Shown one piece after another: positions 2,574 through 34,269 of a stretch of DNA of 64,000 nucleotides; within the stretch, counting starts at the first letter, position 1; each line of letters starts with the position of its first letter. This DNA comes from a phage. The translations under genes and the position numbers were made by a program. Below the pieces are notes generated by a model. It was not told the origin of the DNA. It saw only the letters and a list, made by a program, of their open reading frames with translations, and made no database searches. The DNA is taken from the sequence record PX104378.1; one strand, given 5' to 3'.

Positions 2574-2596
2574 AAAAGGGGCTTTACGCCCCTTTT
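2574..2596 (-). terminator. GC hairpin terminator
   Basis: GGGGC-TTTAC-GCCCC stem flanked by A/T runs, directly after stop of 2598..2810. Confidence 0.5.
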
Positions 2597-2597
2597 A

Positions 2598-2810
2598 TTA
2601 TAATGCACCATCAAGCAATTGCTCTAAGGTGTATCCTGAATAGTCTTTTTCAATCAGGATATATTTTCCTACTCGTTTAATCCAGCCACGCATTTCAACG
2701 TATTCTGCGTAGTTGATGGTACGAGTTGTTCCATCTTCCAGTAATGCAGTACCGATTTCGTTGATGCGGTCATAAGTTACGTCGGTAATGATGATTTCGA
2801 TGTTAGCCAT
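2598..2810 (-). CDS. hypothetical early protein (70 aa)
   Basis: ORF starting MANIE, preceded by conserved leader and GGAG SD of a promoter cassette. Confidence 0.55.
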   Translation of the reverse strand: MANIEIIITDVTYDRINEIGTALLEDGTTRTINYAEYVEMRGWIKRVGKYILIEKDYSGYTLEQLLDGAL

Positions 2811-2846
2811 TTGATACTCCTTAGTAGTTCGTTTCGGTATGTGTGC

Positions 2847-2875
2847 ATTATAGGGGATCGATGATCCCCTGTCAA
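2847..2875 (-). promoter_or_regulatory. sigma70-type early promoter cassette
   Basis: minus strand TTGACA-GGGGATCATCGATCCCC(17)-TATAAT; palindromic spacer with two GATC. Confidence 0.6.
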
Positions 2876-2882
2876 CAACTTT

Positions 2883-3401
2883 TTAGTTATTTTTTAATTG
2901 CTCATCTTGCAATAAAGCAATCACATGCTGGCGATGTTCTTCCGATTGAGGCACACCGAAAAAGTTTGTTTTGTAGAAATACTCTAATCGGTCTTCTCGT
3001 GTGCTCTCTTCCATCATGATCGCGGGTAGTCCGAGATTTCGGAAACGTCGCTTTTCTGCTGGCGTAAAATCGCTGTAATACAGCATAGAATCATCATTAC
3101 CAGCAATGCTAAACTCATCCTTCATGAAGGAGAATATTGCGTTTAAACGCTGTTTACCGTCCACTATTTCGATTTCATAGCGAGAGCCATCATCAATCTT
3201 AGCCATTGCGATAGCACCAACCGGAAAATCATTAATCAGGTTTTCGATAAACATACGTTTGTTTTCGGTGTCCCATACCAAAGGACGCTGATAATCTGGG
3301 TTCATGTTGATATAGCCATCTTCTAACCACGCCTCATAAACAGAGATGACAAAGTTTTTAGTATTGGTATAGTAACGGCGTTTAGGAGTTAAACGGTTCA
3401 T
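2883..3401 (-). CDS. standalone DUF262 / ParB-like domain protein
   Basis: 172 aa; YQRPLVW and IVDGKQRLNAIF match the DUF262 QR..VW and DGQQR motifs; no DUF1524/HNH partner domain. Confidence 0.6.
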   Translation of the reverse strand: MNRLTPKRRYYTNTKNFVISVYEAWLEDGYINMNPDYQRPLVWDTENKRMFIENLINDFPVGAIAMAKIDDGSRYEIEIVDGKQRLNAIFSFMKDEFSIAGNDDSMLYYSDFTPAEKRRFRNLGLPAIMMEESTREDRLEYFYKTNFFGVPQSEEHRQHVIALLQDEQLKNN

Positions 3402-3577
3402 AGTGTGCTTACCTTTTCAATATATGCGTCCGCATACTGGCGAATGCTCATTTCTTCTCGTACTGCTGCTACAAATTCTTTCATGGATTCAAACCATTTG
3501 TAGGTGTCGCGATACATGACCAACTCTTCCCAAGTAAGATCGCAAATCTCTTTACCGTGTAGTTGTGGTGTTATCAT
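3398..3577 (-). CDS. small hypothetical protein (59 aa)
   Basis: ATGA start/stop overlaps with both neighbours (translational coupling); not in ORF track because under 60 aa. Confidence 0.4.
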   Translation of the reverse strand: MITPQLHGKEICDLTWEELVMYRDTYKWFESMKEFVAAVREEMSIRQYADAYIEKVSTL

Positions 3578-3912
3578 AATATAGTTCTCCTGAATGGATC
3601 ATCACGTAAATCAATATCTTTTAAGAACTCATCCCATGAATAGCGGATATTGTTCTTAATTCTCCAGATAAGCGCAGGGATTGAACGCTCTCCCATCTGG
3701 AAGTATGGATCGTATGATCCGTATGCCCAATATGCTACTACAATTCCACAATCAGCGCAATAGTATTCTATTTCACTTGCTGGCGACAAAAGTCCATCAA
3801 TATGATCAGTGATCTTGCTTTCGATGTTATGGCTATGACAATCAGGGCAACGGATGCAATGACCTTGTTTATCGTAATTTGACGTTAGCGAATACTTAAA
3901 CAATCTCATCAT
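3574..3912 (-). CDS. Cys/His-rich Zn-binding protein (112 aa)
   Basis: CIRCPDCHSH ... CADCG cysteine/histidine cluster; 4-nt overlaps with flanking genes. Confidence 0.5.
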   Translation of the reverse strand: MMRLFKYSLTSNYDKQGHCIRCPDCHSHNIESKITDHIDGLLSPASEIEYYCADCGIVVAYWAYGSYDPYFQMGERSIPALIWRIKNNIRYSWDEFLKDIDLRDDPFRRTIL

Positions 3913-4625
3913 AGATCCTTATTGGCTTCAAATACTGCCTTTGCGAATCCTCGCGGGGTAAGTGACCTGATAGTCTTTGTTCTGGTTCCTTTCCCGCCTA
4001 GCTTAGAATGCTGTTTACTGTACCCTTTCTCAATCGGCAACGGTTTCTTTTCTGGCATTATAAAGCCTTGTCCGGTCCATAAGCAAGTCTTTTTCGGGTA
4101 CATATCACGGGCGGCAATATACTCAGGAAACGTAGGATGTATATCATCTTCCGGCAAATAACCGCCATATTCCCACGGGTGGAACATGTAATCAGGCTTA
4201 CGCCACATGCTAGAGATAACGCTTACAGGATTCTCTATCATGTAGGGAACTCCTAGCCATTCACCCAAATAAGCGGTTATTTTAGCTGCCCGTACATCAT
4301 GAACTTGAATTAATGGTCCTTGCTCTCGTTTCTTTCGTTCAAAGTGTGCAGCGCCACTAACAGCTAAATTGGTACACGGTGGGAATGCAAAGATAATATC
4401 CGGTTTCCCCCATTCAAGGTCCATTGCTCTTTCCAGCCAATTCAAATCAATCCATGTGTTTACATAGGTAATGTTTGGATGTTCAAATCGGGTATTATAT
4501 TTTTTGTATGTACCGTGGTCGCCGTCGTCAGCATTGAAGCAGATCACCTTATGACCTGCTTTAGCCCATTCTAGCCCCATTATCCCCGATCCGTCAAAGT
4601 TGCAGAATATTAATTTTTGTTTCAT
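3909..4625 (-). CDS. truncated C5-cytosine methyltransferase-like protein
   Basis: 238 aa; FCNFDGSGIMG (motif I FxGxG), FPPCTNLAVSG (motif IV PC), YMIENP (motif VI ENV-like); no TRD or motifs IX-X. Confidence 0.5.
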   Translation of the reverse strand: MKQKLIFCNFDGSGIMGLEWAKAGHKVICFNADDGDHGTYKKYNTRFEHPNITYVNTWIDLNWLERAMDLEWGKPDIIFAFPPCTNLAVSGAAHFERKKREQGPLIQVHDVRAAKITAYLGEWLGVPYMIENPVSVISSMWRKPDYMFHPWEYGGYLPEDDIHPTFPEYIAARDMYPKKTCLWTGQGFIMPEKKPLPIEKGYSKQHSKLGGKGTRTKTIRSLTPRGFAKAVFEANKDL

Positions 4626-4867
4626 ATACGCCCCTTTAACCCAACACAGATTTTAGAAGGTTCTTTACCGTGCCACATTAAGTAAAGTCCGTTAGTGCGG
4701 CCTTGTTTTGTATATGATTCTTTTCTAATCTTCTTATAGTGTCGTGCTTCCTCAACCGATTGTTTAGAATACCAATCATAAAGGAAGATGAACAAAGGCC
4801 AACCATTAGCGGCCTTAATGCAGTTATTAAGAAATTCCTTATTGCGTTTAATTAATTTTCTTTTCAC
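4622..4867 (-). CDS. hypothetical basic protein (81 aa)
   Basis: ORF with 4-nt overlaps to both neighbours. Confidence 0.5.
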   Translation of the reverse strand: MKRKLIKRNKEFLNNCIKAANGWPLFIFLYDWYSKQSVEEARHYKKIRKESYTKQGRTNGLYLMWHGKEPSKICVGLKGRI

Positions 4868-5115
4868 GCTGCCCCCGTTGGTTTGATAGTAACAGAATCT
4901 AAAAGACCTTTGTTAGCCAGTTCGCGGCAAGTTTTCAGATCCGCAACTTCCCAGCCAGCCGCAATCAGGTTATCTATGAGGCTGTTAGCAACTTCCTCGC
5001 TCATGAAAGAGCACTGTTTGCCGATGGTGTAGCGTACACGCTGTAATTTCAGTTTACGGAAGCCTTTAACGTTCAGGTCTTTAGCGATTTTCTTTGCGGT
5101 TTCGATGTTAGCCAT
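4864..5115 (-). CDS. hypothetical protein (83 aa), first gene of coupled operon
   Basis: starts MANIE; conserved leader AGGAGAATCAAACAATG downstream of promoter cassette. Confidence 0.55.
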   Translation of the reverse strand: MANIETAKKIAKDLNVKGFRKLKLQRVRYTIGKQCSFMSEEVANSLIDNLIAAGWEVADLKTCRELANKGLLDSVTIKPTGAA

Positions 5116-5155
5116 TGTTTGATTCTCCTAAGTGGTATCTCGTCTTGATGGTTGT

Positions 5156-5184
5156 ATTGTAGGGGAGTTATCCTCCCCTGTCAA
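5156..5184 (-). promoter_or_regulatory. sigma70-type early promoter cassette
   Basis: TTGACA-GGGGAGGATAACTCCCC(17)-TACAAT on minus strand. Confidence 0.55.
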
Positions 5185-5198
5185 CACTTTTTATAAAA

Positions 5199-5366
5199 TT
5201 ATTTGTTAATTTCTGGTGCGTTGCTAGGATAGTAACCTTCTTTAACTCCGAGGTATTTCGCAACCATCCCTACAATCTTCTGTGCTACTACAATGTCAAA
5301 TTTCAGATAATCTTCGCCGTGGGTTTCAATGATATATGCTTCACATGCTGCTTTAGTCTCGAACAT
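5199..5366 (-). CDS. small hypothetical protein (55 aa), paralog of 8461..8628
   Basis: MFETKAACEAYIIETHGEDYLKFDIVVAQKIVGMVAKYLGVKEGYYPSNAPEINK; nearly identical to the 8461..8628 product. Confidence 0.5.
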   Translation of the reverse strand: MFETKAACEAYIIETHGEDYLKFDIVVAQKIVGMVAKYLGVKEGYYPSNAPEINK

Positions 5367-5399
5367 TTTGATTCTCCTATTTCGTTTCGGTATGTGTGT

Positions 5400-5428
5400 A
5401 TTATAGGGGATCTCCCGATCCCCGTCAA
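5400..5428 (-). promoter_or_regulatory. sigma70-type early promoter cassette
   Basis: TTGACG-GGGATCGGGAGATCCCC(17)-TATAAT on minus strand. Confidence 0.55.
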
Positions 5429-5442
5429 CAACTTTTTTAAAA

Positions 5443-5724
5443 TTATTCGTGATTAGTTTCGATGTTGTACATTTTGCACCAGTTCAGCCAATCGCCCAGA
5501 TCTTGATAGTTGATGCTTTTATCTGCGGCCATCGTTTTTGTCTTGATACCCATATGTGCGTTATGAGTAAGCATTTTTACAGTGAACTCAATTTTATCGC
5601 CTTTAGCTTTAACATCAACCAGTTTGGTCCACTGGCTACCAGCACCGCGAATGTTCATACCAACGATGTTTCCGATGTATGCTTCTTTGTTTTTCAGGAT
5701 TTCGGTTGCTTTGATGAATTTCAT
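5443..5724 (-). CDS. hypothetical protein (93 aa)
   Basis: ORF behind cassette leader GGAGAATCAAAAATG. Confidence 0.55.
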   Translation of the reverse strand: MKFIKATEILKNKEAYIGNIVGMNIRGAGSQWTKLVDVKAKGDKIEFTVKMLTHNAHMGIKTKTMAADKSINYQDLGDWLNWCKMYNIETNHE

Positions 5725-5757
5725 TTTTGATTCTCCAGTTCGTTTCGGTATGTGTGT

Positions 5758-5786
5758 ATTATGCTATGTTCTTACTTTGGTGTCAA
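5758..5786 (-). promoter_or_regulatory. sigma70-type early promoter cassette
   Basis: TTGACA-N17-CATAAT on minus strand. Confidence 0.55.
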
Positions 5787-5795
5787 CAACTTTTT

Positions 5796-6065
5796 TTAGA
5801 TATTTTCAGAAATAAATTTTAAAACTTGACGTAAATGTTTCTCATCTTTGATGGTAGCCGGAAGTTCTTCTTTTACTTCCTGTGCAAGATAGATATTTCC
5901 GTTCCAAGTGAAAGATCCGTCTTCGTTTACTCGATAGCTGAACATCCACTCGCAATCATTTTCGATTTCATATACACACAGAAGGGTGTAATCGTTAAAG
6001 CTATTGATTTCAAGGTCGAAGCCGTGACGTTTTGCAAAGTTGGTAGTGGTTTTAGTCAGTGCCAT
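5796..6065 (-). CDS. hypothetical protein (89 aa)
   Basis: ORF behind cassette leader AGGAGAATCAAACAATG. Confidence 0.55.
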   Translation of the reverse strand: MALTKTTTNFAKRHGFDLEINSFNDYTLLCVYEIENDCEWMFSYRVNEDGSFTWNGNIYLAQEVKEELPATIKDEKHLRQVLKFISENI

Positions 6066-6105
6066 TGTTTGATTCTCCTAAGTGGTATCTCGTTTCGATG
6101 TGTGT

Positions 6106-6134
6106 ATTATGCTATAGGCTAGACCAGGTGTCAA
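6106..6134 (-). promoter_or_regulatory. sigma70-type early promoter cassette
   Basis: TTGACA-N17-CATAAT on minus strand. Confidence 0.55.
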
Positions 6135-6160
6135 CAACTTTTTTTAATTTTTTTGGAAAT

Positions 6161-6185
6161 AAAAAAGCCGACGCTAAGGTCGGCT
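6161..6185 (-). terminator. rho-independent terminator
   Basis: AGCCGAC-GCTAAG-GTCGGCT hairpin followed on minus strand by UUUUUU. Confidence 0.6.
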
Positions 6186-6192
6186 AATAAAA

Positions 6193-6501
6193 TCATTTAG
6201 ACAAATAATCATTCTGTGCAATCCGGTCGGCGTATGCTGGTGTTACGTCAATCGCAATCACTTTAACGCGTGCTTTCTTGCGACCTGGGTTTTCTCGTAA
6301 CCAGTGCTCATGACCGTGAACATTTTTATACTGCGATGCTTCTTCGAAGGTACGGATCGGACCTGGGTAATCAGCGTAAAGGATCTCTAGATCTTCGGTG
6401 ATGTAAAAATATACATCGTAATTGCTGTTCTCTAGCTTAAGCAGAGACTTTCGGAACATTGGGAGATTTTCGCGGGTAAATTCAAAGATATTATCTTTCA
6501 T
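6193..6501 (-). CDS. HxHW-family small protein, copy 1 (102 aa)
   Basis: HGHEHW ... VKVIAIDV motif shared with five paralogs; GAGGA SD. Confidence 0.6.
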   Translation of the reverse strand: MKDNIFEFTRENLPMFRKSLLKLENSNYDVYFYITEDLEILYADYPGPIRTFEEASQYKNVHGHEHWLRENPGRKKARVKVIAIDVTPAYADRIAQNDYLSK

Positions 6502-6515
6502 AGTATTATCCTCAA

Positions 6516-6536
6516 TAGTTGGATGAAAAGGGGGCT
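6516..6536 (-). terminator. GC hairpin terminator
   Basis: GGGGGC-TTAAC-GCCCCC followed on minus strand by UUUU. Confidence 0.55.
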
Positions 6537-6551
6537 TAACGCCCCCATATA

Positions 6552-6839
6552 TTAAAACAGTCCTTCTTGTACGCCGTAGTAGAGTTCGTCGCTGATAATT
6601 TCATTAATGCGACGGTGTGCATATTCCTGATTTGCGAAGTTGTCAGCAAGTTCTACTTTAGTTTCGCCGTCATGAGTCCATTTAGTGATAACTTTACCAT
6701 CTGCAAATTTGAAGTTGAACTCTTTAGCTACTGCATCGCGTACCAGACGTGCAAACTTGTTGTTACGGATTGCATTATCGGTTTCGTGTGCAGCGTGAGC
6801 AAATTTGTTAACTTTCAGCGTGATAGTGATGTATGCCAT
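6552..6839 (-). CDS. hypothetical protein (95 aa)
   Basis: ORF behind cassette leader TAGGAGAATCAAATTATG. Confidence 0.55.
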   Translation of the reverse strand: MAYITITLKVNKFAHAAHETDNAIRNNKFARLVRDAVAKEFNFKFADGKVITKWTHDGETKVELADNFANQEYAHRRINEIISDELYYGVQEGLF

Positions 6840-6885
6840 AATTTGATTCTCCTAGTTAGAAAGTGTATCTCGTTTCGATGGGTGT

Positions 6886-6914
6886 ATTATGCTATACACC
6901 CGATCTTATGTCAA
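6886..6914 (-). promoter_or_regulatory. sigma70-type early promoter cassette
   Basis: TTGACA-N17-CATAAT on minus strand. Confidence 0.55.
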
Positions 6915-6920
6915 CACTTT

Positions 6921-7199
6921 TTATAAAATAATTTTTTGATATTTTTCTATGATGTTCGTGTAATCCACATCAACCGCTATCACCGTTGCTTCGAATCCAC
7001 CGTTTAGCCAATGGCTATGGTCATGATCGTGAAAGAAACCAAGACCAGTACGAAGACCTTCTTTATATTCGGCGCGTACATTTAGATCATCATCGATAAA
7101 CAGATAAAACCATGAATTTTTACTAGGATTGATGATACAACCTTTCAGATTAGGGAGAATATCACGACTAAGAATAAACTTATCACCTACTTTGAACAT
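6921..7199 (-). CDS. HxHW-family small protein, copy 2
   Basis: HDHDHSHW ... TVIAVDV; start moved to internal ATG (MFKVGDKF) that has a GAGGA SD. Confidence 0.55.
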   Translation of the reverse strand: MFKVGDKFILSRDILPNLKGCIINPSKNSWFYLFIDDDLNVRAEYKEGLRTGLGFFHDHDHSHWLNGGFEATVIAVDVDYTNIIEKYQKIIL

Positions 7200-7203
7200 A
7201 ATA

Positions 7204-7524
7204 TTAGTCCTCACTTATAAGGTCAAACCAATTGTTTTTCGCATAATGCTTAATGCGTGCTTGATCTGCTTCTGCTGGTGATAGATTCCATGCAACCACT
7301 ACAACTTCTGACGCATCGTCATCCGTTTCTGATACCCAATGATTATGATTCATACAATTGTTTGCTATCGCGTGAGCAAATGATTTCATCACTGGAGACG
7401 TATAATCATAGTAACGGATTTTCAGATTTTCATCAACGTACAAATAGATCGTATAAGGTTTATATTCAGTAACCAGTAACAGACAGTTACGCAATTCTGG
7501 GAAAATATTTTTAGTTAATTTCAT
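7204..7524 (-). CDS. HxHW-family small protein, copy 3 (106 aa)
   Basis: NHNHW ... VVVVAWN; GGAGAA SD. Confidence 0.55.
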   Translation of the reverse strand: MKLTKNIFPELRNCLLLVTEYKPYTIYLYVDENLKIRYYDYTSPVMKSFAHAIANNCMNHNHWVSETDDDASEVVVVAWNLSPAEADQARIKHYAKNNWFDLISED

Positions 7525-7739
7525 ATTCTAGTTCTCCGTAATACACGGTAATCCATTTTTTCTTCATACTTTGTATCTTTCCAACACACAATCCCGTTTA
7601 CTGTGCAATCTTTGGAATTGACGAATGATTCATATTGTTCTGCATCTTCCATCATTGCATGAGCGGTCTTTTCATCGAATATATCGCAGATCGCTTTATA
7701 TGCTCGATAATCTTTAAATTTGCTCATAATTAAGACCAC
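7521..7739 (-). CDS. hypothetical protein (72 aa), tandem paralog A
   Basis: MSKFKDYRAYK... shares N-terminus and C..W..T.Y pattern with 7730..7939. Confidence 0.5.
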   Translation of the reverse strand: MVLIMSKFKDYRAYKAICDIFDEKTAHAMMEDAEQYESFVNSKDCTVNGIVCWKDTKYEEKMDYRVLRRTRI

Positions 7740-7939
7740 TCAAGAGTTTTTGAAAACACATCTATCCATTGTTGAGTATATGCGGTTTCTTTCCATGATA
7801 CAATACCAGTCGAATAATGGTTTTTGTTTCCAGAAAAGGACGGGCATTTTGAGGCATCTTCCATCATCTTTTCGGCGAACTCTGGTTCGTATACTCGCAA
7901 GATCTGTTGATATGCTTTATAATCTTTAAATTTGCTCAT
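7730..7939 (-). CDS. hypothetical protein (69 aa), tandem paralog B
   Basis: MSKFKDYKAYQ... paralog of 7521..7739. Confidence 0.5.
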   Translation of the reverse strand: MSKFKDYKAYQQILRVYEPEFAEKMMEDASKCPSFSGNKNHYSTGIVSWKETAYTQQWIDVFSKTLEWS

Positions 7940-8204: not shown

Positions 8205-8216
8205 AATATATTCCTC

Positions 8217-8396
8217 TTAGAAAGGGATGGTCATTTCTTGAGCTTGTACATTCTCGTTAGGATTAAACTTCATCCAACCGATATTGTCTACCAGCATATG
8301 CACATTTTTATCATATCCTACGTGAGTAGTCAATACTGTATGTGCTTTACCTTCAACGATGATTTCCATGTACTTCTGAACTTCGATAGCTTTCAT
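8217..8396 (-). CDS. small hypothetical protein (59 aa)
   Basis: MKAIEVQKYMEIIVEGKAHTVL...; cassette leader GGAGAATCAAAATG. Confidence 0.45.
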   Translation of the reverse strand: MKAIEVQKYMEIIVEGKAHTVLTTHVGYDKNVHMLVDNIGWMKFNPNENVQAQEMTIPF

Positions 8397-9267: not shown

Positions 9268-9588
9268 TCACACAAAATGGCGTTTCAATGCTTCTTTTGC
9301 GGTTCCGCTAAGACTTTCGATCTCGCCTGGCATAACATCAACTGCCAGAACTTCTACAACATCCTCTGACCCCAACCAGTGAGTATGACCTTTGTAGAAC
9401 TTGATAACCAGACTACCTTCCTCATCCCATTTAACGCTATCGCTAGCCCACCACACATCACCGTCGATAAAGTTGATGTAAAGCACACTACGCCACATTG
9501 AATTAATTACTTTCAATACTGCGCCTTTCATATCTTCCACGGTGTGGTCTTCCATTTTGAAGACCTCGCCTACCTGAACTTTTGCCAT
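9268..9588 (-). CDS. HxHW-family small protein, copy 6 (106 aa)
   Basis: GHTHW ... VLAVDV; GAGGTGA SD. Confidence 0.6.
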   Translation of the reverse strand: MAKVQVGEVFKMEDHTVEDMKGAVLKVINSMWRSVLYINFIDGDVWWASDSVKWDEEGSLVIKFYKGHTHWLGSEDVVEVLAVDVMPGEIESLSGTAKEALKRHFV

Positions 9589-9819: not shown

Positions 9820-9848
9820 AGTATAGGGGATCACCGATCCCCTGTCAA
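9820..9848 (-). promoter_or_regulatory. sigma70-type early promoter cassette
   Basis: TTGACA-GGGGATCGGTGATCCCC(17)-TATACT on minus strand. Confidence 0.55.
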
Positions 9849-9861: not shown

Positions 9862-10338
9862 TTATTTTTCTTGATGCTCGCGCTCGTACTTTTCGAAATA
9901 AAATTCTACTGGCTGGTCGTGGATTGACAGTAAGCCAAAGCGTTTAGCCGCTCGCAACCCCATATTGCGCTGAATGTACTTCTGGAAGTTCTCGCGTATA
10001 CACTTACGCCAGTATTCTAAGCCCATACAGCTTTTATAAAGATTGCATTGCACACACGCCGGATTCATGTTATCAAGTATATCATGCTCCGGTTTATGCA
10101 TTCCTACAACCTTATACTTCCACGATCCATCATCATTACGGGCAATTCGTCCATTTTCATCATAGACTACTTTTGAGCGTCGTAATACTGGTTTGATGTG
10201 GTCTGCGTGCCAGCGATCCCCTAGTTCCTCGCCACAATAGGCACAACGTCCACCATATTTCATTTTCAGGATCTGGCGTTGCTCTTTCTTTGACAATTTT
10301 TTAGGTTTAGGGGCTTTCGCCCCTTCATTATCACACAT
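9862..10338 (-). CDS. HNH endonuclease (homing-endonuclease-like)
   Basis: 158 aa; CAYCG ... WHADHIKP ... NMNPACVQCN (HNH with flanking Cys pairs); start overlaps ligase stop by 8 nt. Confidence 0.7.
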   Translation of the reverse strand: MCDNEGAKAPKPKKLSKKEQRQILKMKYGGRCAYCGEELGDRWHADHIKPVLRRSKVVYDENGRIARNDDGSWKYKVVGMHKPEHDILDNMNPACVQCNLYKSCMGLEYWRKCIRENFQKYIQRNMGLRAAKRFGLLSIHDQPVEFYFEKYEREHQEK

Positions 10339-12499: not shown

Positions 12500-12518
12500 G
12501 GCGGGATTATTTCCCGCC
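12500..12518 (-). terminator. rho-independent terminator after gene 31
   Basis: GGCGGGA-TTATT-TCCCGCC hairpin directly after stop. Confidence 0.5.
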
Positions 12519-15603: not shown

Positions 15604-15621
15604 GCGGGGAACTAGCCCCGC
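15604..15621 (-). terminator. rho-independent terminator after rnlA
   Basis: GCGGGG-AACTAG-CCCCGC hairpin followed by UUUUGUCG. Confidence 0.55.
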
Positions 15622-17218: not shown

Positions 17219-17238
17219 AGGCGGGATTTCTCCCGCCC
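17219..17238 (-). terminator. rho-independent terminator
   Basis: GGCGGGA-TTTC-TCCCGCC hairpin followed by UUUGUUGUG. Confidence 0.55.
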
Positions 17239-17244: not shown

Positions 17245-17643
17245 TTAACTTTCCAGAATATCGCGAGCTTCGTTACGCTCCTTGATGATTTTCAGGACAA
17301 ATTCCAGTTTTTCTTTGTTCAGTGTTCCGTTTTCCATTGCTTCTTTGACGGTAAACACTCCGCCACCTTGCCCGTATACAGTGACAGTGATTTCACCTAA
17401 CATCGTGGTATGAAAACCGCCAATTTTCGGTGATTCGAAAGAAACAATTACCTCGCGGACAGTATTACCGTCGTTGATTTCTGAGAGGGTAATGTCGTTT
17501 TTGTAGGCGGTTGCTTTAACCATACGGATCAGCATAGTCTGATCTGGGGAGATGGTCATTTTGTCCATTGCATGTTGCAATGCAGCGTAACCGAAAACTT
17601 TAACGAAATCCAGAACGTCTTTGCGAGTTTGAAATTTAATCAT
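17245..17643 (-). CDS. hypothetical protein (132 aa)
   Basis: ORF behind cassette leader TAAGGAGTATCAAGATG. Confidence 0.55.
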   Translation of the reverse strand: MIKFQTRKDVLDFVKVFGYAALQHAMDKMTISPDQTMLIRMVKATAYKNDITLSEINDGNTVREVIVSFESPKIGGFHTTMLGEITVTVYGQGGGVFTVKEAMENGTLNKEKLEFVLKIIKERNEARDILES

Positions 17644-17684
17644 CTTGATACTCCTTAGTAAGTTAGTTTCGTTTCGATGGGGGT

Positions 17685-17713
17685 ATATTACTACCCCCGT
17701 TCCATGCTGTCAA
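17685..17713 (-). promoter_or_regulatory. sigma70-type early promoter cassette
   Basis: TTGACA-N17-TAATAT with GGGGGTAGTAATATACCCCC stem-loop. Confidence 0.5.
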
Positions 17714-17932: not shown

Positions 17933-17965
17933 TTTGATTCTCCTTTGTTTCTTTTCGATGGGGGT

Positions 17966-17994
17966 ATATTACTACCCCCGTTATTCAGTGTCAA
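17966..17994 (-). promoter_or_regulatory. sigma70-type early promoter cassette
   Basis: TTGACA-N17-TAATAT; near-duplicate of the cassette at 17685. Confidence 0.5.
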
Positions 17995-20508: not shown

Positions 20509-20537
20509 ATTATAGCGGGGATTTCTCCCCGCGTCAA
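20509..20537 (-). promoter_or_regulatory. sigma70-type early promoter cassette
   Basis: TTGACG-CGGGGAGAAATCCCCGC(17)-TATAAT immediately after nrdA stop. Confidence 0.55.
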
Positions 20538-22789: not shown

Positions 22790-22859
22790 ATTACCTCACT
22801 TCATATTTTAGCAGGAACAAGTTTATCCTCCATATTGGGGGGCTTTCGCCCCCTTTTGT

Positions 22860-24092
22860 TTATACTGCCATTTGAGCGGTGATTGCTGGATGGCTTTGAT
22901 AGTTGTGAATTTTAAAGTCTTTCGGAGTCTTTGTCAATACCTCATCTAAAGATTTAAATTCCGGCAACTCAATTGTTGGTTTATCAAACGGAACACGGCT
23001 TAACTGTTCAATAACTTGATCAAAATGGTTTTTGTAAATGTGAGTATCTCCACCAGAGAAAATCAGTTCTCCTACCTCAAGATCACACATTTTCGCTATG
23101 ATGTGAGTTAACAGCGCATAGCTGGCAACATTAAAGGGCAAGCCCAAAAAGCTGTCTACGCTTCGCTGAAACCACATACAAGACAGTTTACCTTCATTGA
23201 CATAGAATTGCACGAACGGATGACATACACCTAATACAGCATTATGTGTTCCTTGTACGTTCCATGAGTCAATAATGATCCGGCGATCCGTTGGATTGTT
23301 TTTAATTTGTTCAATCACGTTTTGTAATTGGTCTTCCCAAATCTTCGGGCGATAGACATATTCTTCATCGTCTTTAGTGCTCGATGTGTCTACGTCCATA
23401 CTAGCAAAAATCGTGGTATCTGGTGCTAAAATATCCCCACCCAGATAATCACTATCAAGTAGATAACCGAAATAACCATCATCTACCCATTCCTGGAATC
23501 CCCACAAGCAATATGCATCATTAACAAAATTAGATTGAGTCTTCCAGTGGTCTGCTACTAAGAATAGATTATATTCAGAATCAAACTCTTCATAACGCAT
23601 ACCACGCCAGATAGCACATAAACGGTCTTCTGTGTCGTTGGTTGGCGTAAAGTCTTCTACCCACGGGTGTTTAAATGTATGTGTATATTTGCTCTTAACG
23701 CGCTTAATTTTGATTTCACCGTGTGGGTGAATCGGTTTGCGTCGCCACGCCATACCATACATATTGCCGACATTATAACCATTGAATCGCAAAGGATTCT
23801 TTTCTTTCATATCAAGACAGTTGCCGCGCCAAATGTCGAAGGCTTCTTCGTCAAACTTACCGCGTGTAATTTCCTGTAAGCGACGGCGGTCAAGTGATCC
23901 CTCCATAAACCATATCAACTCGCCAATTACAGAGGCTGTAGCCATCTTTTTAGTGGTCAGTAAGGGGAAACCCTTTCTTAAATCAATTCGCATCTCTGCG
24001 CCGAATTTAGAGAGCGTACCTACCCCCGTGCGGTCTTCACGAGGCCAGCCATTATCAAGAACATCACGCAACAGTTTCAAATATTCTTTCAT
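22860..24092 (-). CDS. td: thymidylate synthase with large internal insertion
   Basis: 410 aa; TS motifs DRTGVGT, TTKK, DRRIIIDSWN, VCHPFVQFYV, GLPFNVASYALL; about 115 extra residues between the YG.AWRR and QLQNVIEQIK blocks. Confidence 0.8.
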   Translation of the reverse strand: MKEYLKLLRDVLDNGWPREDRTGVGTLSKFGAEMRIDLRKGFPLLTTKKMATASVIGELIWFMEGSLDRRRLQEITRGKFDEEAFDIWRGNCLDMKEKNPLRFNGYNVGNMYGMAWRRKPIHPHGEIKIKRVKSKYTHTFKHPWVEDFTPTNDTEDRLCAIWRGMRYEEFDSEYNLFLVADHWKTQSNFVNDAYCLWGFQEWVDDGYFGYLLDSDYLGGDILAPDTTIFASMDVDTSSTKDDEEYVYRPKIWEDQLQNVIEQIKNNPTDRRIIIDSWNVQGTHNAVLGVCHPFVQFYVNEGKLSCMWFQRSVDSFLGLPFNVASYALLTHIIAKMCDLEVGELIFSGGDTHIYKNHFDQVIEQLSRVPFDKPTIELPEFKSLDEVLTKTPKDFKIHNYQSHPAITAQMAV

Positions 24093-25691: not shown

Positions 25692-25715
25692 GTTCCTCCA
25701 TTGTTTCGATGTTTG

Positions 25716-25743
25716 TATTATACAATACTATGTTACTTTGTCA
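25716..25743 (-). promoter_or_regulatory. sigma70-type early promoter cassette
   Basis: TTGACA-N16-TATAAT on minus strand. Confidence 0.5.
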
Positions 25744-26405: not shown

Positions 26406-26433
26406 AATAAAAAAGCCTCCCCGAAGGGAGGCT
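26406..26433 (-). terminator. rho-independent terminator after gene 32
   Basis: GCCTCCC-CGAA-GGGAGGC hairpin followed on minus strand by UUUUUUAUUG. Confidence 0.7.
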
Positions 26434-28670: not shown

Positions 28671-28674
28671 AATA

Positions 28675-29274
28675 TTAACCCTCTTTAGTCATTAATTGAA
28701 AACCACGTTCAGCTTTTGAGATTTCGCTAGGACTTAAATCGTCACCCACATATTCTAGCATCATTTCTCGGATAATGTCAAGTGCTTTTTCATCACCTGA
28801 TTTTAACTCGAACTCAAGTTCATAATGAGCAGTGTCGCCCAATCCTTCGCCTACTTTGCCATAATAGAAAGTGTCTTTGCACATTTCCACTATACCGCAA
28901 CCCATATCTAGAGTCAATGACTTGCGATATGTCATTACTTGCATTATTGTAGTGATATAGTCGGAGTTTACCCCTAGACTATCAATAAAATGGACGAACT
29001 CATCCCAATTTGAAAATGTCATTTCCTCGCGGTTGAATAGTCCAGATTCATTATCACCCATTTTGACCATGATCTCTGATTTTCGACAGTCAAGTCGTGC
29101 ATAAATTCCTTTTTGACGTAGCGCATGATCTTCGGTATCATAATAAAATTCGTGTTTTAGAATGTTATCACGGTCTACGAGATTGTACCCGTCATACATT
29201 GCTACCCACAAATCACAGATGGTTTCGACGCCAATTTGTGAGTGTGCATAGTATTTTAATTCAAGTTCTTTCAT
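28675..29274 (-). CDS. CYTH-domain (triphosphate tunnel metalloenzyme) protein
   Basis: 199 aa; N-terminal ELELKYY (CYTH EIExK-type motif) and later YELEFELK acidic strand. Confidence 0.5.
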   Translation of the reverse strand: MKELELKYYAHSQIGVETICDLWVAMYDGYNLVDRDNILKHEFYYDTEDHALRQKGIYARLDCRKSEIMVKMGDNESGLFNREEMTFSNWDEFVHFIDSLGVNSDYITTIMQVMTYRKSLTLDMGCGIVEMCKDTFYYGKVGEGLGDTAHYELEFELKSGDEKALDIIREMMLEYVGDDLSPSEISKAERGFQLMTKEG

Positions 29275-29284
29275 GTGTCAACCC

Positions 29285-30232
29285 TTAGAACTCACCAATT
29301 TTCTGCAACATTTTAACTAACGCATTTGTTACAAAATAGTTATAAATTTTACCGCGTGGTGCTGGTTTAGATTTTTCCCATGACTCCAGAATCTGATTCT
29401 GAATATTGTCTGGGATGTAATCGAAATCAATAAGTTCGCGGTTTTCATCAAATCGACGTGCTTCTTCCTCTGTCATCAAAGACTTTGGATCTTCGGCATC
29501 GAAGATTTGCTCTAACCATTTGGTCGCAACTGGTTTAGCTCGTTCACCTTCCAATCGAGAGATAATAAAATCACTACGGCACTTGACAGAAGCTACACCG
29601 TCTTTTGCGTCACCCTTAACACATTTTACCATAAGGTCTTTGTACGGGCTACCGTATTTGCATTTCTTCCATGCTTTTTGTACTGGTGCCCACTGCTTCA
29701 CATTTTTGTATTTGTGCAACTGTGTGTAGTCACCATCGCCGGAGTTGATCAGCACCTGACGACCTTCTACAGAAAACTTTTTAGTTAGCACAGCGATTAT
29801 ATCATCCGCTTCAACTTTGTCAACCTTAATAACGTGATAAGGCATGTTCTCTTTAAACTCTTCGGTGATCTTATTGATCGCAGCAAAGATCATCTCCCAA
29901 TCACGCGGATCTGCGTCTCGTTTTTCCTTACGGTTGCGTTTATAGTAAGGGGCGATATCACGTCGCCAGTAACCTTTGCTTGAATCAAAAGCAAGTACCG
30001 TAATAGGGTATTGCTCTTTGAATTTTGTCATATTATAACGCATGGTGTCAAGAATAAGATGACGGATCATGCCTTCACTAATAGGATCTTCCGGTTTAAA
30101 GGTATGCGAGATAGTAGCAATCATAAGCTGCGACATATCAATCAAATGCACACCTTCCGGTAGTTTATCTTCTGGGTCATCGAAGAAATCATTAAGTGTA
30201 GCGGTAGTTTTTGTAAACGGGTTATACGTCAT
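29285..30232 (-). CDS. rnh: RNase H (5'-3' exonuclease / flap endonuclease)
   Basis: 315 aa; GYWRRD, YYKRNR, VEADDIIAVL, NSGDGDYTQLHKY.NVKQW, IDFDYIPDNI match recalled T4 RNase H. Confidence 0.9.
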   Translation of the reverse strand: MTYNPFTKTTATLNDFFDDPEDKLPEGVHLIDMSQLMIATISHTFKPEDPISEGMIRHLILDTMRYNMTKFKEQYPITVLAFDSSKGYWRRDIAPYYKRNRKEKRDADPRDWEMIFAAINKITEEFKENMPYHVIKVDKVEADDIIAVLTKKFSVEGRQVLINSGDGDYTQLHKYKNVKQWAPVQKAWKKCKYGSPYKDLMVKCVKGDAKDGVASVKCRSDFIISRLEGERAKPVATKWLEQIFDAEDPKSLMTEEEARRFDENRELIDFDYIPDNIQNQILESWEKSKPAPRGKIYNYFVTNALVKMLQKIGEF

Positions 30233-30234
30233 AA

Positions 30235-30420
30235 TTAAGTTCTCTCCACTCTCACAACAACATATTCGCCAAACGAGTTAGATACTTCACGATCATAACC
30301 GTACTTCTCCATAACTCGCAGAATTGCATTGTTTAATTCGGCACGGAAATAATTGTAATCCTTATCTGGGATTCTGTCAACTATCCATTTTGCACCGTCT
30401 GACAAATCAACTTTAACCAT
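30235..30420 (-). CDS. small hypothetical protein (61 aa)
   Basis: ORF directly downstream of rnh. Confidence 0.4.
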   Translation of the reverse strand: MVKVDLSDGAKWIVDRIPDKDYNYFRAELNNAILRVMEKYGYDREVSNSFGEYVVVRVERT

Positions 30421-30458
30421 AATATATCATCCTCTTTTGTTTCTATCAAGCCTTATTT

Positions 30459-30466
30459 TATAAATA
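30459..30466 (+). promoter_or_regulatory. T4-type late promoter
   Basis: exact TATAAATA about 29 nt upstream of gp34 ATG; AAGGAG SD at 30481. Confidence 0.7.
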
Positions 30467-30494
30467 TGAACATACTATAAAAGGAGACCCAATA

Positions 30495-33400
30495 ATGGCA
30501 GATTTTTCTCAACATTTCAAGGCCACATTTGGCTTTGACGCTGGTAATGAAAAGGTCGTCAATGTAGCATTGGCTGATAAGAATGTCAACACCGATGCGG
30601 TCAACGTTGAATTTTTCAATTACCATAATGGTATTACTCAGTATGACACAACTCGCGGTTATGATCAATACGGAACTACAATCTATCAAAACCGTCCGTA
30701 TTATGCAAAAGAAGATATCACAAAGCCAGCAGGTGATTTTGACCCGACTAAATGGCAAGCACTGCGCACCGATCCACGTTGGGATTATATTGCAGCAACT
30801 TCCGGTGATACTCCTTTAAAGTCTGGTGATTATATCGCAGCAGATGGTCAATTTGCAAACTTGACTTTCTCCATGCCAAACAAACCAGCAGAGGGAGACA
30901 CTATAACAGTAAAAGATATCGGTGGCAAGTGTGGTGTTAATGAATTATCGTTCTTGAGTTCAGGTCATGAGTTTTATCATAACGGTAATGTGTATAACCG
31001 CAAATGGTATTGCACTACCCCGTATGCAATGAACTATTTCATCTTTGTTCGTAATCGTTGGCATGTTTATCAGACAGGAACAGAGCCACGCGGTGTGTAC
31101 GCACAGCCAGCGATTGATGCTATTCAAATGCAGAATGGTGATCAGGTATTTCGTCGTAGTTCGTTGGGTAATATTACCTTAGTGCTTCCTAAGTTTGCCA
31201 ACAATGGCGACATGATCCAGACCACAGACCTTGACGGGTTAACCGCAACCAACCACGTTACGGTTAAAGTTCATGAGCACGCAGAAGAACAATCAATTGG
31301 CACGTTCGGATTAAAAGAGATTATCGGTAAGCGTAGCGGTCATGGTGTATTCATCTTTGATAAGCCTGAAAACTTATGGCGTGTGTGGGATGGTGATCAG
31401 TCTGTTCGTCTTAAACCGATCATCGATGACACTCGCTTGCAACCTAATAGTTATGTTGCTGTATTTGGTGATCATGATGTTACTCTGACGCTACCGACCA
31501 ATGTCGAGCCGGGTGATCGTATTCAAGTTTCTATGCAGTATATGCACGGAAACCAGAATTGCCGTATTATCACCGCCGCAGAGGATACAAAAATCCTTAT
31601 GCAGAAAAATATGGTTCAGTTTCCTAAGCGTAGCGAGTACCCATTCAACGGGACCGAGACATGGAAGGAAGTGTCTGAATTGTCGTTCAATGCGGCTAGT
31701 GATTATGTACCTTATCTGGAGTTCTCTTATTCAGAAGGTGATGATGGTAAAAAACACTGGTTGGTAGCACATGCTCACCCGATTGTAGAACGAGTAGATC
31801 CGACTCGTAAAGCGCGTGTTGGTGTAATTGCACTGGCTACCCAGACTGAAACGAATAAAAACCATGAAGAGAATCCTAGCGACGAAGTTGCAGTAACACC
31901 AAAAATGCTGGCTAATAAAACCGCCAACGAAACTCGACGCGGTATTGCTCGCATTGCGACTCAGGAGGAAACGCATCAAGATACTGGTTCCAGCTTCCTG
32001 GATGATGTTATCGTTACGCCTAAAAAGTTAAATGATTGTGTTGCTACCGAAGCCCGTCGTGGTGTGATGGAAATTGCAACTCAACATGAAACCAACGAAG
32101 GTTTAGACGATACTCGCGCAATAACTCCTAAGAAGTTAGAAGAACGTCGCGCGTCCGAGGATCTTGCTGGTATTGCTGAAATTGTTCAGGTAGGCGGTAA
32201 TGCTGCCGCTCGAAGGGGTGAAGCTGGCACGGGGATCTATAACATAAACGACCACGCTAAAATCGTTACTCCGCAAAACATCAACGAAGTCAAGGCGACA
32301 GAAACTTCCCGTGGTGTTGGCTATCTGGCAACTGACGCGGAAGTGCAAGGGGCTACAGAATCAACCCCGCAAGATGCTTTACTAATCACGACTCGCACGC
32401 TAACGAAACGTACTGCTACAGAATCGCGTACTGGTATCGCTGAAATTGCAACTCAGGAAGAAACAAACTTAGGTCAGAGTGATAACCATATCATCACGCC
32501 TAAAAAGCTGCATACTCGCCGCGCAACGGAAACTTTACATGGTTTAGCAGAAATTGCAACTCAGCCGGAATTTGACGCAGGTCGTGACGATGCTCGCATT
32601 TCTACCCCATTGAAGATTAAAACCTTCTTTGAGAATGCACAGCGTTTGAAAGTAGATCCGACTCAGGGGCTTAACCTTACTGGTGATTTGTGGCAAGGTA
32701 TCATGATCAGCGGTCTGGATGCAACCGAAGACACAAAAGGTGTCGCTAAAGTTGCTACTACTCAGCTTACGGATGCTGGTCAAGATGATACTACAATCAT
32801 TACTCCTAAAAAGCTGCAAGGCAAAAAGGCCACCGAAGGTAAAGAAGGTATTATCCGAGTTGGTACTCAAGCCGAAACCGTGGCTGGTGTACTGGCTAAT
32901 GTAGCAATTTCTCCGAAGAACTTCAAATATGTTGTTCAGACAGAGGATACATGGAAAGCAACCGAAGCGCGTCGTGGTTTCTTGAAAGTTGCTACTCAGG
33001 AAAACTGTTTTGTTGGTGATAATCTGCAAGGTTCTACTCAAGAACTAGGAAACTACCAGCATGACGGAATTGCTGTTACCCCGAAAGGATTAAACTACGC
33101 ACTTGCTAATTTCTTACCTAAGATGGCAACCGCTCAGAATAGTTTGAAATTGGGTAACGTAGAGGCCGCTAAATGGGCGCGTAGAGACATTGACCAGACC
33201 ATTGAGAGCAATTACACGTTTAATAAAAACGTTAACGTGAAGGGCGATTTAGAGTGCTTAAAATCTGGTTCCTTTGAAACTCTGTTTGTGACTAAGAACT
33301 CGACTGATGATCCGAGTAATGGTCATCTGGTGTTGGGTGAGCGTGGAGTTGACGGTCACACCGGAATTACTCTGCACGGCACAACCGCATCGGAAGGTAT

Positions 33401-34235
33401 GGAAAACTCATGGTCTATTATCGTTGGTGGTACTGGAACAGCGCAAGTTGTTGATAGTGACGCTATCGCTTTCGGTAAAATCAATGATGGTGGATTCGTC
33501 GAGCATTACGCCTTTGCTATGGAACACAATGGCGACGCGGCAGCATATAGAGACTTTATTGCAGGTCGTAACCTGTATGCGAAACAAGGCGGTTTATACA
33601 TTGTTGACCAGTCTAATCCGGCAATGACTCGTTCCCCAGATGGTATGCTGAATATCGGTCACGGTGGAAGTGTTAATATCAAGGCAGGTTATCAAACGTT
33701 AACTACAGAGATCGCCGGACAGAAATATCAGATCGTACACGCAGGAAACGCAGACGAAGTTCTTAACCGTCAGTTTGTTAAGAATGCTGGCGATACAATG
33801 GTCGGTAAGCTGATTATGGATAATGCGCCTATTGTTTCTGTTAAGCATGAAGCTAGCGCGGCAACCGCTCCGGCAATCGGTAACATCGGTTTCTGGAATA
33901 TGCGCGTTACTACCCAGAACATCAAAGAAACTTATCCAGAGAAGAAAAACGGTACTCTGATGCAATGGGGTACTGACGAGGACGGGCTTACCCAGCTTTG
34001 GTCCCCTGATGGTACTCATAAACATTATATCCGTTCCGGTACTGGTGGTCAATGGACCGCATGGGGTGAAATTTACACCAAACAGAATAAGCCTACCGCT
34101 CAGGAAATCGGGGCAGTAGTTGCAGAAGGTGGTTTAATGAACTCTATGACGGTTCGTGATTGGATCAAAGTTGGTAATGTTAAAATCATCGCCAATAATC
34201 TGACTCGTACCGTAGACTTTATCTGGGAAGACTAA
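30495..34235 (+). CDS. 34: long tail fibre proximal subunit gp34
   Basis: 1246 aa; N-terminus ...DAGNEKVVNVALADKNVNTDAVNVE...YDTTRGY matches recalled T4 gp34; internal GIAEIATQ...TPKKL repeats. Confidence 0.85.
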   Translation: MADFSQHFKATFGFDAGNEKVVNVALADKNVNTDAVNVEFFNYHNGITQYDTTRGYDQYGTTIYQNRPYYAKEDITKPAGDFDPTKWQALRTDPRWDYIAATSGDTPLKSGDYIAADGQFANLTFSMPNKPAEGDTITVKDIGGKCGVNELSFLSSGHEFYHNGNVYNRKWYCTTPYAMNYFIFVRNRWHVYQTGTEPRGVYAQPAIDAIQMQNGDQVFRRSSLGNITLVLPKFANNGDMIQTTDLDGLTATNHVTVKVHEHAEEQSIGTFGLKEIIGKRSGHGVFIFDKPENLWRVWDGDQSVRLKPIIDDTRLQPNSYVAVFGDHDVTLTLPTNVEPGDRIQVSMQYMHGNQNCRIITAAEDTKILMQKNMVQFPKRSEYPFNGTETWKEVSELSFNAASDYVPYLEFSYSEGDDGKKHWLVAHAHPIVERVDPTRKARVGVIALATQTETNKNHEENPSDEVAVTPKMLANKTANETRRGIARIATQEETHQDTGSSFLDDVIVTPKKLNDCVATEARRGVMEIATQHETNEGLDDTRAITPKKLEERRASEDLAGIAEIVQVGGNAAARRGEAGTGIYNINDHAKIVTPQNINEVKATETSRGVGYLATDAEVQGATESTPQDALLITTRTLTKRTATESRTGIAEIATQEETNLGQSDNHIITPKKLHTRRATETLHGLAEIATQPEFDAGRDDARISTPLKIKTFFENAQRLKVDPTQGLNLTGDLWQGIMISGLDATEDTKGVAKVATTQLTDAGQDDTTIITPKKLQGKKATEGKEGIIRVGTQAETVAGVLANVAISPKNFKYVVQTEDTWKATEARRGFLKVATQENCFVGDNLQGSTQELGNYQHDGIAVTPKGLNYALANFLPKMATAQNSLKLGNVEAAKWARRDIDQTIESNYTFNKNVNVKGDLECLKSGSFETLFVTKNSTDDPSNGHLVLGERGVDGHTGITLHGTTASEGMENSWSIIVGGTGTAQVVDSDAIAFGKINDGGFVEHYAFAMEHNGDAAAYRDFIAGRNLYAKQGGLYIVDQSNPAMTRSPDGMLNIGHGGSVNIKAGYQTLTTEIAGQKYQIVHAGNADEVLNRQFVKNAGDTMVGKLIMDNAPIVSVKHEASAATAPAIGNIGFWNMRVTTQNIKETYPEKKNGTLMQWGTDEDGLTQLWSPDGTHKHYIRSGTGGQWTAWGEIYTKQNKPTAQEIGAVVAEGGLMNSMTVRDWIKVGNVKIIANNLTRTVDFIWED

Positions 34236-34269
34236 TTAAAGGGGGGCGAAAGCCCCCTATGGGGTTATT

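Follow-up and report, generated by a model that had tools for sequence, protein, structure and literature searches.

A 64,000-nucleotide (nt) stretch of phage DNA (sequence record PX104378.1, hereafter the window) carries a recurrent short hairpin, GGGG(G)C-loop-GCCCC(C), at gene boundaries, which an earlier note on this DNA had regarded as a possible shared element of RNA processing or translational control rather than only a terminator. Our analysis indicates that these hairpins are probably stem-loops of the sense-strand RNA placed just past stop codons, that is, the Krischvirus flavour of the T4-type terminator or extra-stable intercistronic hairpin. They are real, conserved, ordinary and essentially known, the stem motif having been noted in 2010 and the hairpin class dating from 1988.

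The window belongs to a Krischvirus, a T4-type phage resembling RB49, phi1 and JSE, its best match being Shigella phage JK32 (MK962753) with 97.9% identity; gene positions were taken via the annotations of JK32, RB49, JSE and KFS-EC. A minus-strand gene block (1-30232) holds alt, a hyperplastic ORFan region, HNH, ligase gp30, gp31, cd, pseT, rnlA, denA, nrdB, nrdA, td, frd, gene 32 and rnh, and therefore most hairpins of the earlier note are read on the minus strand; a plus-strand block (30495-40912) contains the tail-fibre genes 34-37 and the holin, and the remaining window is minus again. Hairpins of the window were located by direct reading and a perfect-stem scan, and the expectation for their counts was derived from 300 dinucleotide shuffles. 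For genome-wide tests the same scan was repeated on the complete JK32 genome, which yielded 68 strong hairpins, 51 of them non-coding (13 promoter-embedded and 38 stand-alone).

The GGGG(G)C hairpin was found by direct reading and scan at 2574-2596 (core 2578-2592), 6530-6546, 10309-10324, 22838-22853 and 34242-34257. All five near-identical hairpins claimed before are thus present, although the one placed at 6520..6536 was 10 nt off and belongs at 6530-6546; a sixth, at 63770-63790, had not been listed. The pattern GGGGC-N3-6-GCCCC occurs 6 times in the window versus a mean of 0.02 (maximum 1) in the shuffles, and there are 31 perfect hairpins of 5 or more G-C pairs versus 3.8 ± 1.8, which rules out a chance origin. 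The second family, described earlier as GCGGGGA-loop-TCCCCGC, is likewise present at its five sites (12500-12518, 15604-15621, 17220-17237, 20515-20532 and 37106-37126), but it is heterogeneous in sequence, with arms that read GGCGGGA, GCGGGG or GCGGGGA. Together, the six GGGGC and five second-family hairpins have 5-6 G-C pairs each and bare-hairpin free energies of -10.8 to -14.3 kcal/mol, and all 11 lie 1-13 nt past a stop codon on the sense RNA, possessing the GC stem of an intrinsic terminator. When folds were predicted with flanking context (56-61 nt), a check which the earlier note had proposed, the hairpin was the centroid RNA structure at all six GGGGC sites. Rfam 15 models at gathering score gave no match across the whole window, ruling out a known structured RNA family.

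Three positional classes can be distinguished in the window: GC hairpins within a sigma70 promoter (class P); a hairpin plus U-run followed by a promoter (class T; 6166, 18288 and 26414); and stand-alone hairpins without promoter that begin 1-11 nt past the upstream stop codon (class I), among them the six GGGGC hairpins and those at 12500, 15604, 17220, 37106, 47791 and 61997. The GGGGC hairpins form two subtypes. Those with a 5-nt loop and a U-tract are all on the minus strand: 2574..2596 (AAAAGGGGC-GUAAA-GCCCCUUUU with a UUUUUC tail), a predicted terminator upstream of alt, 1 nt past the stop of a 70-residue ORFan and 42 nt before alt; 6530..6546 (GGGGGC-GUUAA-GCCCCC with UUUUCAU), a predicted intercistronic terminator or attenuator 5 nt past an ORFan stop, the next ORFan start being 28 nt on; and 63770..63790 (AAAGGGGC-UACGU-GCCCCUUU with UUCAU), which follows the uvsX stop by 10 nt and precedes gene 40 by 24 nt. 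Those with a C(GAAA)G loop and no U-tract are 10309..10324 (minus strand, AGGGGC-GAAA-GCCCCU), 6 nt past the DNA ligase stop and within the HNH open reading frame (ORF); 22838..22853 (minus strand, GGGGGC-GAAA-GCCCCC), 6 nt past the td stop and 48 nt before nrdA; and 34242..34257 (plus strand, GGGGGC-GAAA-GCCCCC), which follows the gp34 stop by 6 nt and ends 12 nt short of the gp35 ATG. Their sense tails are AAACCUAA, CAAUAUGG and UAUGGGGU, respectively, and since none has a sense-strand U-tract these three are not canonical intrinsic terminators. A tail UUUUCAU is common to 2574, 6530 and 63770 (window 2567-2573, 6523-6529 and 63763-63769, minus strand) and to a hairpin at JK32 38293, which may reflect a common origin or a constraint.

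Four of the second-family hairpins are also stand-alone, and a sense-strand U-tract is present at 37106, 15604 and 17220 and, weakly, at 12500. Three of them are terminator-like and on the minus strand: 12500..12518 (GGCGGGA-AAUAA-UCCCGCC with UAUAUUUUGG), 11 nt past the gp31 stop; 15604..15621 (GCGGGG-CUAGUU-CCCCGC with CUUUUGU), 6 nt past the rnlA stop; and 17220..17237 (GGCGGGA-GAAA-UCCCGCC with UUUGUUGU), 7 nt past an ORFan stop and before denA. The fourth, 37106..37126 (plus strand, AGCGGGGA-UUAUC-UCCCCGCU with UUUCU), lies 4 nt past the gp36 stop. As regards loop closure, 10309, 22838 and 34242 have C(GAAA)G, 26414 has C(UUCG)G and 61997 has C(UACG)G, so that the C-G-closed tetraloop of the T4 type is found at these five positions; the loops at 17220 and 20515 are A(GAAA)U, and 2574, 6530 and 63770 lack such a tetraloop, having 5-nt loops.

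The genome-wide scan of JK32 relates these hairpins to stop codons and to the sense RNA. Its stand-alone non-coding GC hairpins begin 2-23 nt past a stop in 34 of 38 cases (median 7 nt), and hairpins lying nearer to the upstream stop than to the next start outnumber the opposite by 28 to 6 (p = 2e-4); position is thus tied to the upstream stop and not to the downstream start. At least 5 U are present in the 8-nt sense tail of 24 of the 38. Non-coding 4-nt loops, read on the gene strand, are of a special type in 14 of 16 cases (10 GNRA and 4 UNCG), while on the opposite strand GNRA or UNCG was found in 0/16 non-coding hairpins; coding-region hairpins gave 0/7. This sense-only bias is seen in plus- and minus-strand gene blocks alike. 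Similarly, non-coding hairpins containing G.U pairs number 21 on the sense versus 9 on the antisense strand (four of the latter nine being outer pairs of PeSLs, the promoter-early stem-loops considered below), compared with 39 versus 37 in coding regions. The sense-only GNRA and UNCG loops together with the sense-biased G.U pairs indicate that selection acts on the sense RNA.

Conservation in related genomes, on which the proposal of the earlier note had been made to depend, was borne out, as the hairpin is kept at every site in JK32, RB49, JSE, KFS-EC and relatives from IMG/VR, the variation consisting chiefly of slippage in G/C-run length and of loop changes. For example, orthologues of 6530 retain the hairpin in RB49, JSE and KFS-EC with G/C runs of varying length, and in the gene 32 terminator (26414) a C to U change gives a sense U.G pair in JSE and KFS-EC and full A-U compensation in JK32. 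The td/nrdA hairpin (22838) is kept in six Krischvirus sequences; at the same boundary, Pseudomonas phage PspYZU05 (NrdA 68% identical) has GGAGGC-GAAA-GCCUCC plus U6, a stem with a compensatory G-C to A-U change and now with a U-tract. The gp34/gp35 boundary of a relative with ~80% nt identity (L011) reads GGGGGC-UUU-GCCCCC plus UUUU. Orthologous hairpins thus toggle the presence of the U-tract, since PspYZU05 and L011 have one where the window sites do not. The flanks of the hairpins show no relationship, their pairwise identity of 32-35% being roughly what chance gives at this composition, so that the GGGGC hairpins are not copies of a mobile repeat, and a repeated mobile element with shared flanks is ruled out. 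Moreover, the GGGGC family grades into at least 4 other GC-hairpin flavours in the same genome. Unrelated flanks, this gradation, the stop-tied position and the toggling of the U-tract all speak against the single shared element that had been suggested.

The closest known relatives of these hairpins are those of T4, whose terminators combine a GC stem with a 4-nt loop and poly(U) (PMC2988022); UUCG hairpins were first found in T4 mRNA (Tuerk et al. 1988, as cited in PMC4371310), and T4-like genomes have conserved, predicted terminators ahead of alt, behind gene 32 and between genes 35 and 36 (PMC1524935). The window hairpins share with the T4 type the GC-rich stem, the sense GNRA or UNCG 4-nt loop, the location just past stops and, usually, the poly(U), and their positions upstream of alt, after gene 32 and between 35 and 36 match. 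They differ in that Krischvirus prefers G-run/C-run stems with GAAA whereas T4 and Serratia phage X20 (Winklervirus) prefer UUCG, in that three Krischvirus members lack poly(U), and in that the td/nrdA and gp34/gp35 sites have no counterpart in T4 or X20. Phage X20 has its own recurrent post-stop hairpin, (AU)GGGAGAC-UUCG-GUCUCCC(AU), which is sense-read in both gene orientations (examples at 9277-9298, 17564-17581, 25713-25734 and 33921-33938 of its locus, L015). In Krischvirus G2248 (MK327932), orthologues of seven of ten hairpins (2574, 12500, 15604, 17220, 22838, 34242 and 37106) are annotated as terminators, these features being computational 'putative terminator' annotations. Intercistronic stabilisers are also known from bacteria, such as the REP elements of malE-malF in E. 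coli and those of the Rhodobacter puf operon; there too a stable stem-loop past the upstream cistron of a read-through operon accompanies unequal expression of co-transcribed genes, although the elements are longer or repeated.

Regarding mechanism, we propose that members with a U-tract (2574, 6530, 63770, 37106, 15604, 17220 and 12500) would act as intrinsic terminators or attenuators, separating early ORFan cassettes from late genes and trimming read-through. The C(GAAA)G members without U-tract (10309, 22838 and 34242) would let RNA polymerase pass and serve as stable punctuation within an operon, where they would block 3'->5' exonucleases; owing to that block the upstream cistron (ligase, td or gp34) would outlive or outnumber the downstream one, and expression of the latter (HNH endonuclease, nrdA or gp35) would be lowered. 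The data show that the hairpins exist, are enriched, lie close to stops, have a sense-strand bias of tetraloops and G.U pairs and are conserved, compensatory changes included, and that 34242 must be read through; how efficiently they terminate, protect from exonucleases and alter protein ratios is what we infer from this arrangement. The earlier suggestion that the hairpins are more than terminators is thus partly supported and reasonable for three of them, given the missing U-tract at 10309, 22838 and 34242, the obligatory read-through of 34242, the signatures of sense RNA and the location of 10309 at +13..+28 of an ORF, but it does not amount to a new kind of element.

The hairpin at the gp34/gp35 boundary offers a case of read-through. 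The gp34 stop is at 34235 and hairpin 34242 lies directly 5' of the GGGG Shine-Dalgarno sequence of gp35; its placement just before the gp35 start had been correctly noticed before, the distance to the ATG at 34270 being 12 nt and not 10. Late promoters of the form TATAAATA occur only before gp31, gp34 and gp36, and neither a late nor a sigma70 promoter for gp35 was found within 570 nt upstream, even allowing one mismatch. As gp35 has no promoter of its own, it must be made by read-through of 34242, and the missing U-tract is consistent with this. A parallel is found in Aeromonas phage 25, where the seg43(25) hairpin lies just upstream of a ribosome-binding site (PMC2988022). The 3' arm CCCCC might alternatively pair with the GGGG Shine-Dalgarno sequence of gp35, but such pairing is not favoured by the predicted ensemble, the Shine-Dalgarno sequence remaining unpaired in predicted folds. 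On the opposite strand, the 3' end of gene 34 contains a strong sigma70-like promoter in antisense orientation (TTGACC-17-TATAAT, 11/12; 34024-34052, minus strand); gene 34 of T4 also harbours an antisense promoter, that of the oriG primer.

Hairpin 10309 lies, as had been claimed, inside the 5' end of the HNH ORF just past the ligase stop (ligase TGA 10331-10333, HNH ATG 10338). The HNH start, preceded by the Shine-Dalgarno sequence GAGG, overlaps the ligase stop, and the hairpin occupies codons 5-10, or +13..+28 of the ORF. HNH homologues outside Krischvirus align from residue 19-20 on, residues 1-18 being absent from them, and the Pfam HNH domain comprises residues 32-53; 10309 thus falls in a lineage-specific 18-residue N-terminal extension that is effectively the ligase 3' region. 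A mis-called start was considered, with an in-frame TTG 12 nt past the hairpin, which would then be intergenic, and was rejected because it has no Shine-Dalgarno sequence whereas the ATG at 10338 has GAGG; with either start, the hairpin is upstream of the conserved HNH core. In T4, mobE and segF carry a stem-loop in the 5' coding region, and ~30% of the transcripts measured end at the mobE terminator, a structure thought to limit endonuclease expression (PMC2988022). Like 10309, mobE concerns an HNH gene whose ATG overlaps the upstream stop (nrdA in T4, ligase here) and which has a stem-loop in its early codons; in contrast, the mobE hairpin has a weak U-tract and 10309 (tail AAACCUAA) has none. 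By analogy, the hairpin inside the HNH ORF appears as a copy of the T4 mobE/segF layout, and its position could damp initiation of HNH, for which mobE and segF are the precedent.

Around the td/nrdA hairpin, a T-run adjoins 22837-22853 on the antisense strand. Between 22838 and nrdA (window 22802-22834, minus strand) there is a GGAGG box, a GGAG motif of the RegB type, as well as a 10-codon mini-ORF, MEDKLVPAKI, ending just before the nrdA Shine-Dalgarno sequence. The thymidylate synthase ORF (22860-24092, minus strand) encodes 410 residues versus 286 in X20, and its Pfam match is split in two stretches (profile of 266 positions, ~140 extra residues); these extra residues would be an in-frame insert. 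Many T4-like phages have conserved another hairpin, TGGCAGCC-loop-GGCTGCCA, at ~190 nt on the 5' side of nrdA. It is absent from the window; it is found in T4 inside nrdA.1 (L019, 20863-20882) and in ~15 IMG/VR loci (e.g. L043 and L051-L054), its loops being GGGA, GTGA, GCGA, GAGA and TTCG only, all of them GNRA or UNCG, and some variants having a U.G pair.

Several observations weigh against reading these hairpins as T4-type RNA punctuation. Local-fold z-scores are modest (-1.3 to -3.3), the tetraloop counts are of phylogenetically non-independent events, and KFS-EC has one uncompensated mismatch in the 10309 stem. The gp34/gp35 hairpin is absent in T4 and X20, which have only an 8-nt gap there, and among 49 T4-like loci of IMG/VR only Krischvirus and PspYZU05 have a td/nrdA hairpin; given their absence from T4 and X20, both would be lineage-specific and dispensable in principle. 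The proposed split between terminators and decay barriers is read from U-tracts and nothing else. A search of the literature for Term-seq or 3'-end maps of T4-like phages gave nothing usable, and no Krischvirus 3'-end data were found. Finally, 10309, 22838 and 34242 have A-rich upstream flanks, equivalent to a U-rich tail on the antisense strand, and in JK32, of the 10 hairpins that lack a sense U-tract, 7 show 5 or more A in the preceding 8 nt versus a baseline of 26%.

This last feature favours antisense terminators, by which the members without U-tract would stop opposing RNA polymerase, such as early 'anti-late' transcription that runs on into the tail-fibre genes; the antisense tails of 22838 and 34242 are T-rich, and the minus-strand early genes from 40948 on point into the plus-strand fibre cluster. 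We consider such a role improbable, as at all three sites the sense strand reads GAAA in the loop and the antisense strand an unremarkable UUUC, which argues that the sense RNA matters; in addition, one of the seven A-flanked JK32 hairpins is a true terminator of convergent genes, A-richness derives partly from stop codons, and no strong antisense promoter has been demonstrated to fire. Translational control, the idea of the earlier note in which the hairpin modulates ribosome access to the next cistron, seems to us doubtful but the location of 10309 at +13..+28, inside the 30S footprint, the down-regulation of T4 homing endonucleases by such structures, and the abutting of 34242 on the gp35 Shine-Dalgarno, like the seg43(25) hairpin, all speak for it, as does the make-up of the long tail fibres of T4, which are described as comprising a gp34 trimer and a gp35 monomer. 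On the other hand, Shine-Dalgarno sequences are unpaired in predicted folds, most members are 20-50 nt from the start, and the gap to the next start ranges from 12 to >50 nt while that to the stop is tight. It could also be imagined that 10309, 22838 and 34242 are not generic stable hairpins but a dedicated Krischvirus cis-element setting fixed ratios in read-through operons, e.g. gp34:gp35 = 3:1; such an element, to which we give little credence, might be the site of a phage RNA- or DNA-binding protein, a non-template d(GCGAAAGC) mini-hairpin, or an antisense terminator. As to DNA, the three hairpins each contain exactly GCGAAAGC as their core, and d(GCGAAAGC) is an extraordinarily stable DNA mini-hairpin whose melting temperature is 76.5 C and which is found close to origins of replication and of transcription (PMC13037366). 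On the non-template strand it could act in replication priming, gp32 exclusion or specific protein binding, and an origin lies inside gene 34 of T4. Here, however, the octamer caps a G-C stem of 5-6 bp that is transcription-oriented in both gene blocks, and siblings of the same positional class have UUCG and UACG loops. The extra stability of UUCG and UACG loops is known for RNA rather than DNA. Given these siblings, the sense-specific G.U pairs and an orientation that follows transcription, a DNA role of the core is unlikely; with a UUU loop in L011 besides, we find the proposal hardly credible.

The remaining alternative is that the GGGG...CCCC stem-loops are PeSLs, recombination-prone DNA modules of promoter and terminator by which ORFans are shuffled from phage to phage (Arbiol et al. 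2010, PMC2839356; Comeau et al. 2014, PMC4122927). These were described in the same phage group with exactly this motif, the stems of RB49/phi1 PeSLs being said to "generally involve GGGG...CCCC" (PMC2839356), and attenuation has been demonstrated, as an RB49 GGGG..CCCC stem-loop without U-tract (PeSL211/210) lowered lacZ expression to about the same degree as rrnB T1 (PMC2839356), a result that makes attenuation by hairpins without a U-tract plausible. In the window, 20515 and eight other hairpins are true PeSLs within TTGAC..TATAAT promoters. Hairpin 20515..20532 (minus strand, GCGGGGA-GAAA-UCCCCGC) fills the spacer of a sigma70 promoter (TTGACG-17-TATAAT, 20537-20509) and is thus a PeSL cassette and not stand-alone. 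By the definition of Arbiol et al. (2010), a PeSL has a strong sigma70-like -35/-10 promoter that overlaps or adjoins the stem-loop, AT-rich DNA upstream of it, and a Shine-Dalgarno sequence with ATG downstream. Promoters of this kind are present at 20515, 2852, 5161, 5406, 9825, 17679, 17960 and 43785, and none was found at 2574, 6530, 10309, 22838, 34242, 63770, 12500, 15604, 17220 or 37106. Homology breakpoints (n=82), defined by comparing the window with JK32, RB49, JSE and KFS-EC and counted within 60 nt, fell at promoter-embedded hairpins in 19 of 82 cases versus 2.1 expected, and at stand-alone ones in 0 of 82 versus 2.5 expected. The clustering at promoter-embedded hairpins, noted for those at 2852, 5161, 5406, 9825, 17679, 17960 and 20515, lends support to the PeSL shuffling model as published. 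The six GGGGC hairpins and the second-family ones other than 20515 differ from PeSLs in having no sigma70 promoter, in lying off breakpoints, and in being partly between core or late genes: those at ligase/HNH, td/nrdA and gp34/gp35 separate core genes and are not beside ORFans. A role in DNA would also leave the sense-only tetraloops unexplained. We therefore regard this reading of the GGGGC family as very unlikely; with no promoter and no breakpoints, PeSL membership is ruled out, and since breakpoints spare stand-alone hairpins the family is not a recombination cassette, though it shares the stem motif.

Other hairpins of the window complete the picture. The contrast class is represented by the classic PeSL at 2852..2870 (minus strand, TTGAC-AGGGGAUC-AUC-GAUCCCCU-AUAAU), further copies of TTGAC-AGGGGAUC..GAUCCCCU-AUAAU being found at 5161-5179, 5406-5423, 9825-9843 and 43785-43803, and in a variant (17679-17698 and 17960-17979) the loop of the hairpin is the -10 box. 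At two stand-alone hairpins the U-tract runs straight into a late-promoter-like box, CATAAATA before alt at 2574 and TCTAAATA before gp37 at 37106; such junctions of terminator and late promoter are located at window 2560-2574 (minus strand) and 37127-37136 (plus strand) and at T4 L019:3530-3542, and T4 has the same layout upstream of alt, a UUCG hairpin then TATAAATA. The combination of hairpin and late-promoter box looks like the late-gene counterpart of the PeSL layout. Outside the list of the earlier note, hairpin 26414..26433 (minus strand, AGCCUCCC-UUCG-GGGAGGCU plus U5) is the gene 32 terminator and precedes a sigma70 promoter, and 35420..35442 (plus strand, AAGCCGAUCC-AUG-UGGUCGGCUU plus UAUUUUUAUA) is the gp35/gp36 terminator, upstream of a late promoter at 35570. 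The latter (window 35420-35442) belongs with a further family, AAGCCnnUCC-(GAAA or UUCG)-GGGnnGGCUU, present in JK32 at, for example, 36386-36407, 49419-49444, 57766-57789, 101304-101329 and 108746-108765; the third pair from the loop, as parsed in member 36386, is a U.G wobble that can form only on the sense RNA.

For annotation of these genomes, stand-alone GGGGC hairpins should be kept apart from PeSLs, as shuffling breakpoints are marked by the promoter-embedded ones only. The T4 mobE/segF layout explains the hairpin in the HNH ORF, and gp35 depends on reading through a very stable hairpin. If it is true that the subset without U-tract tunes ratios within operons, these hairpins would offer a compact natural part with which expression ratios can be set, and such tuning would be a modest addition to post-transcriptional control of the T4 type.

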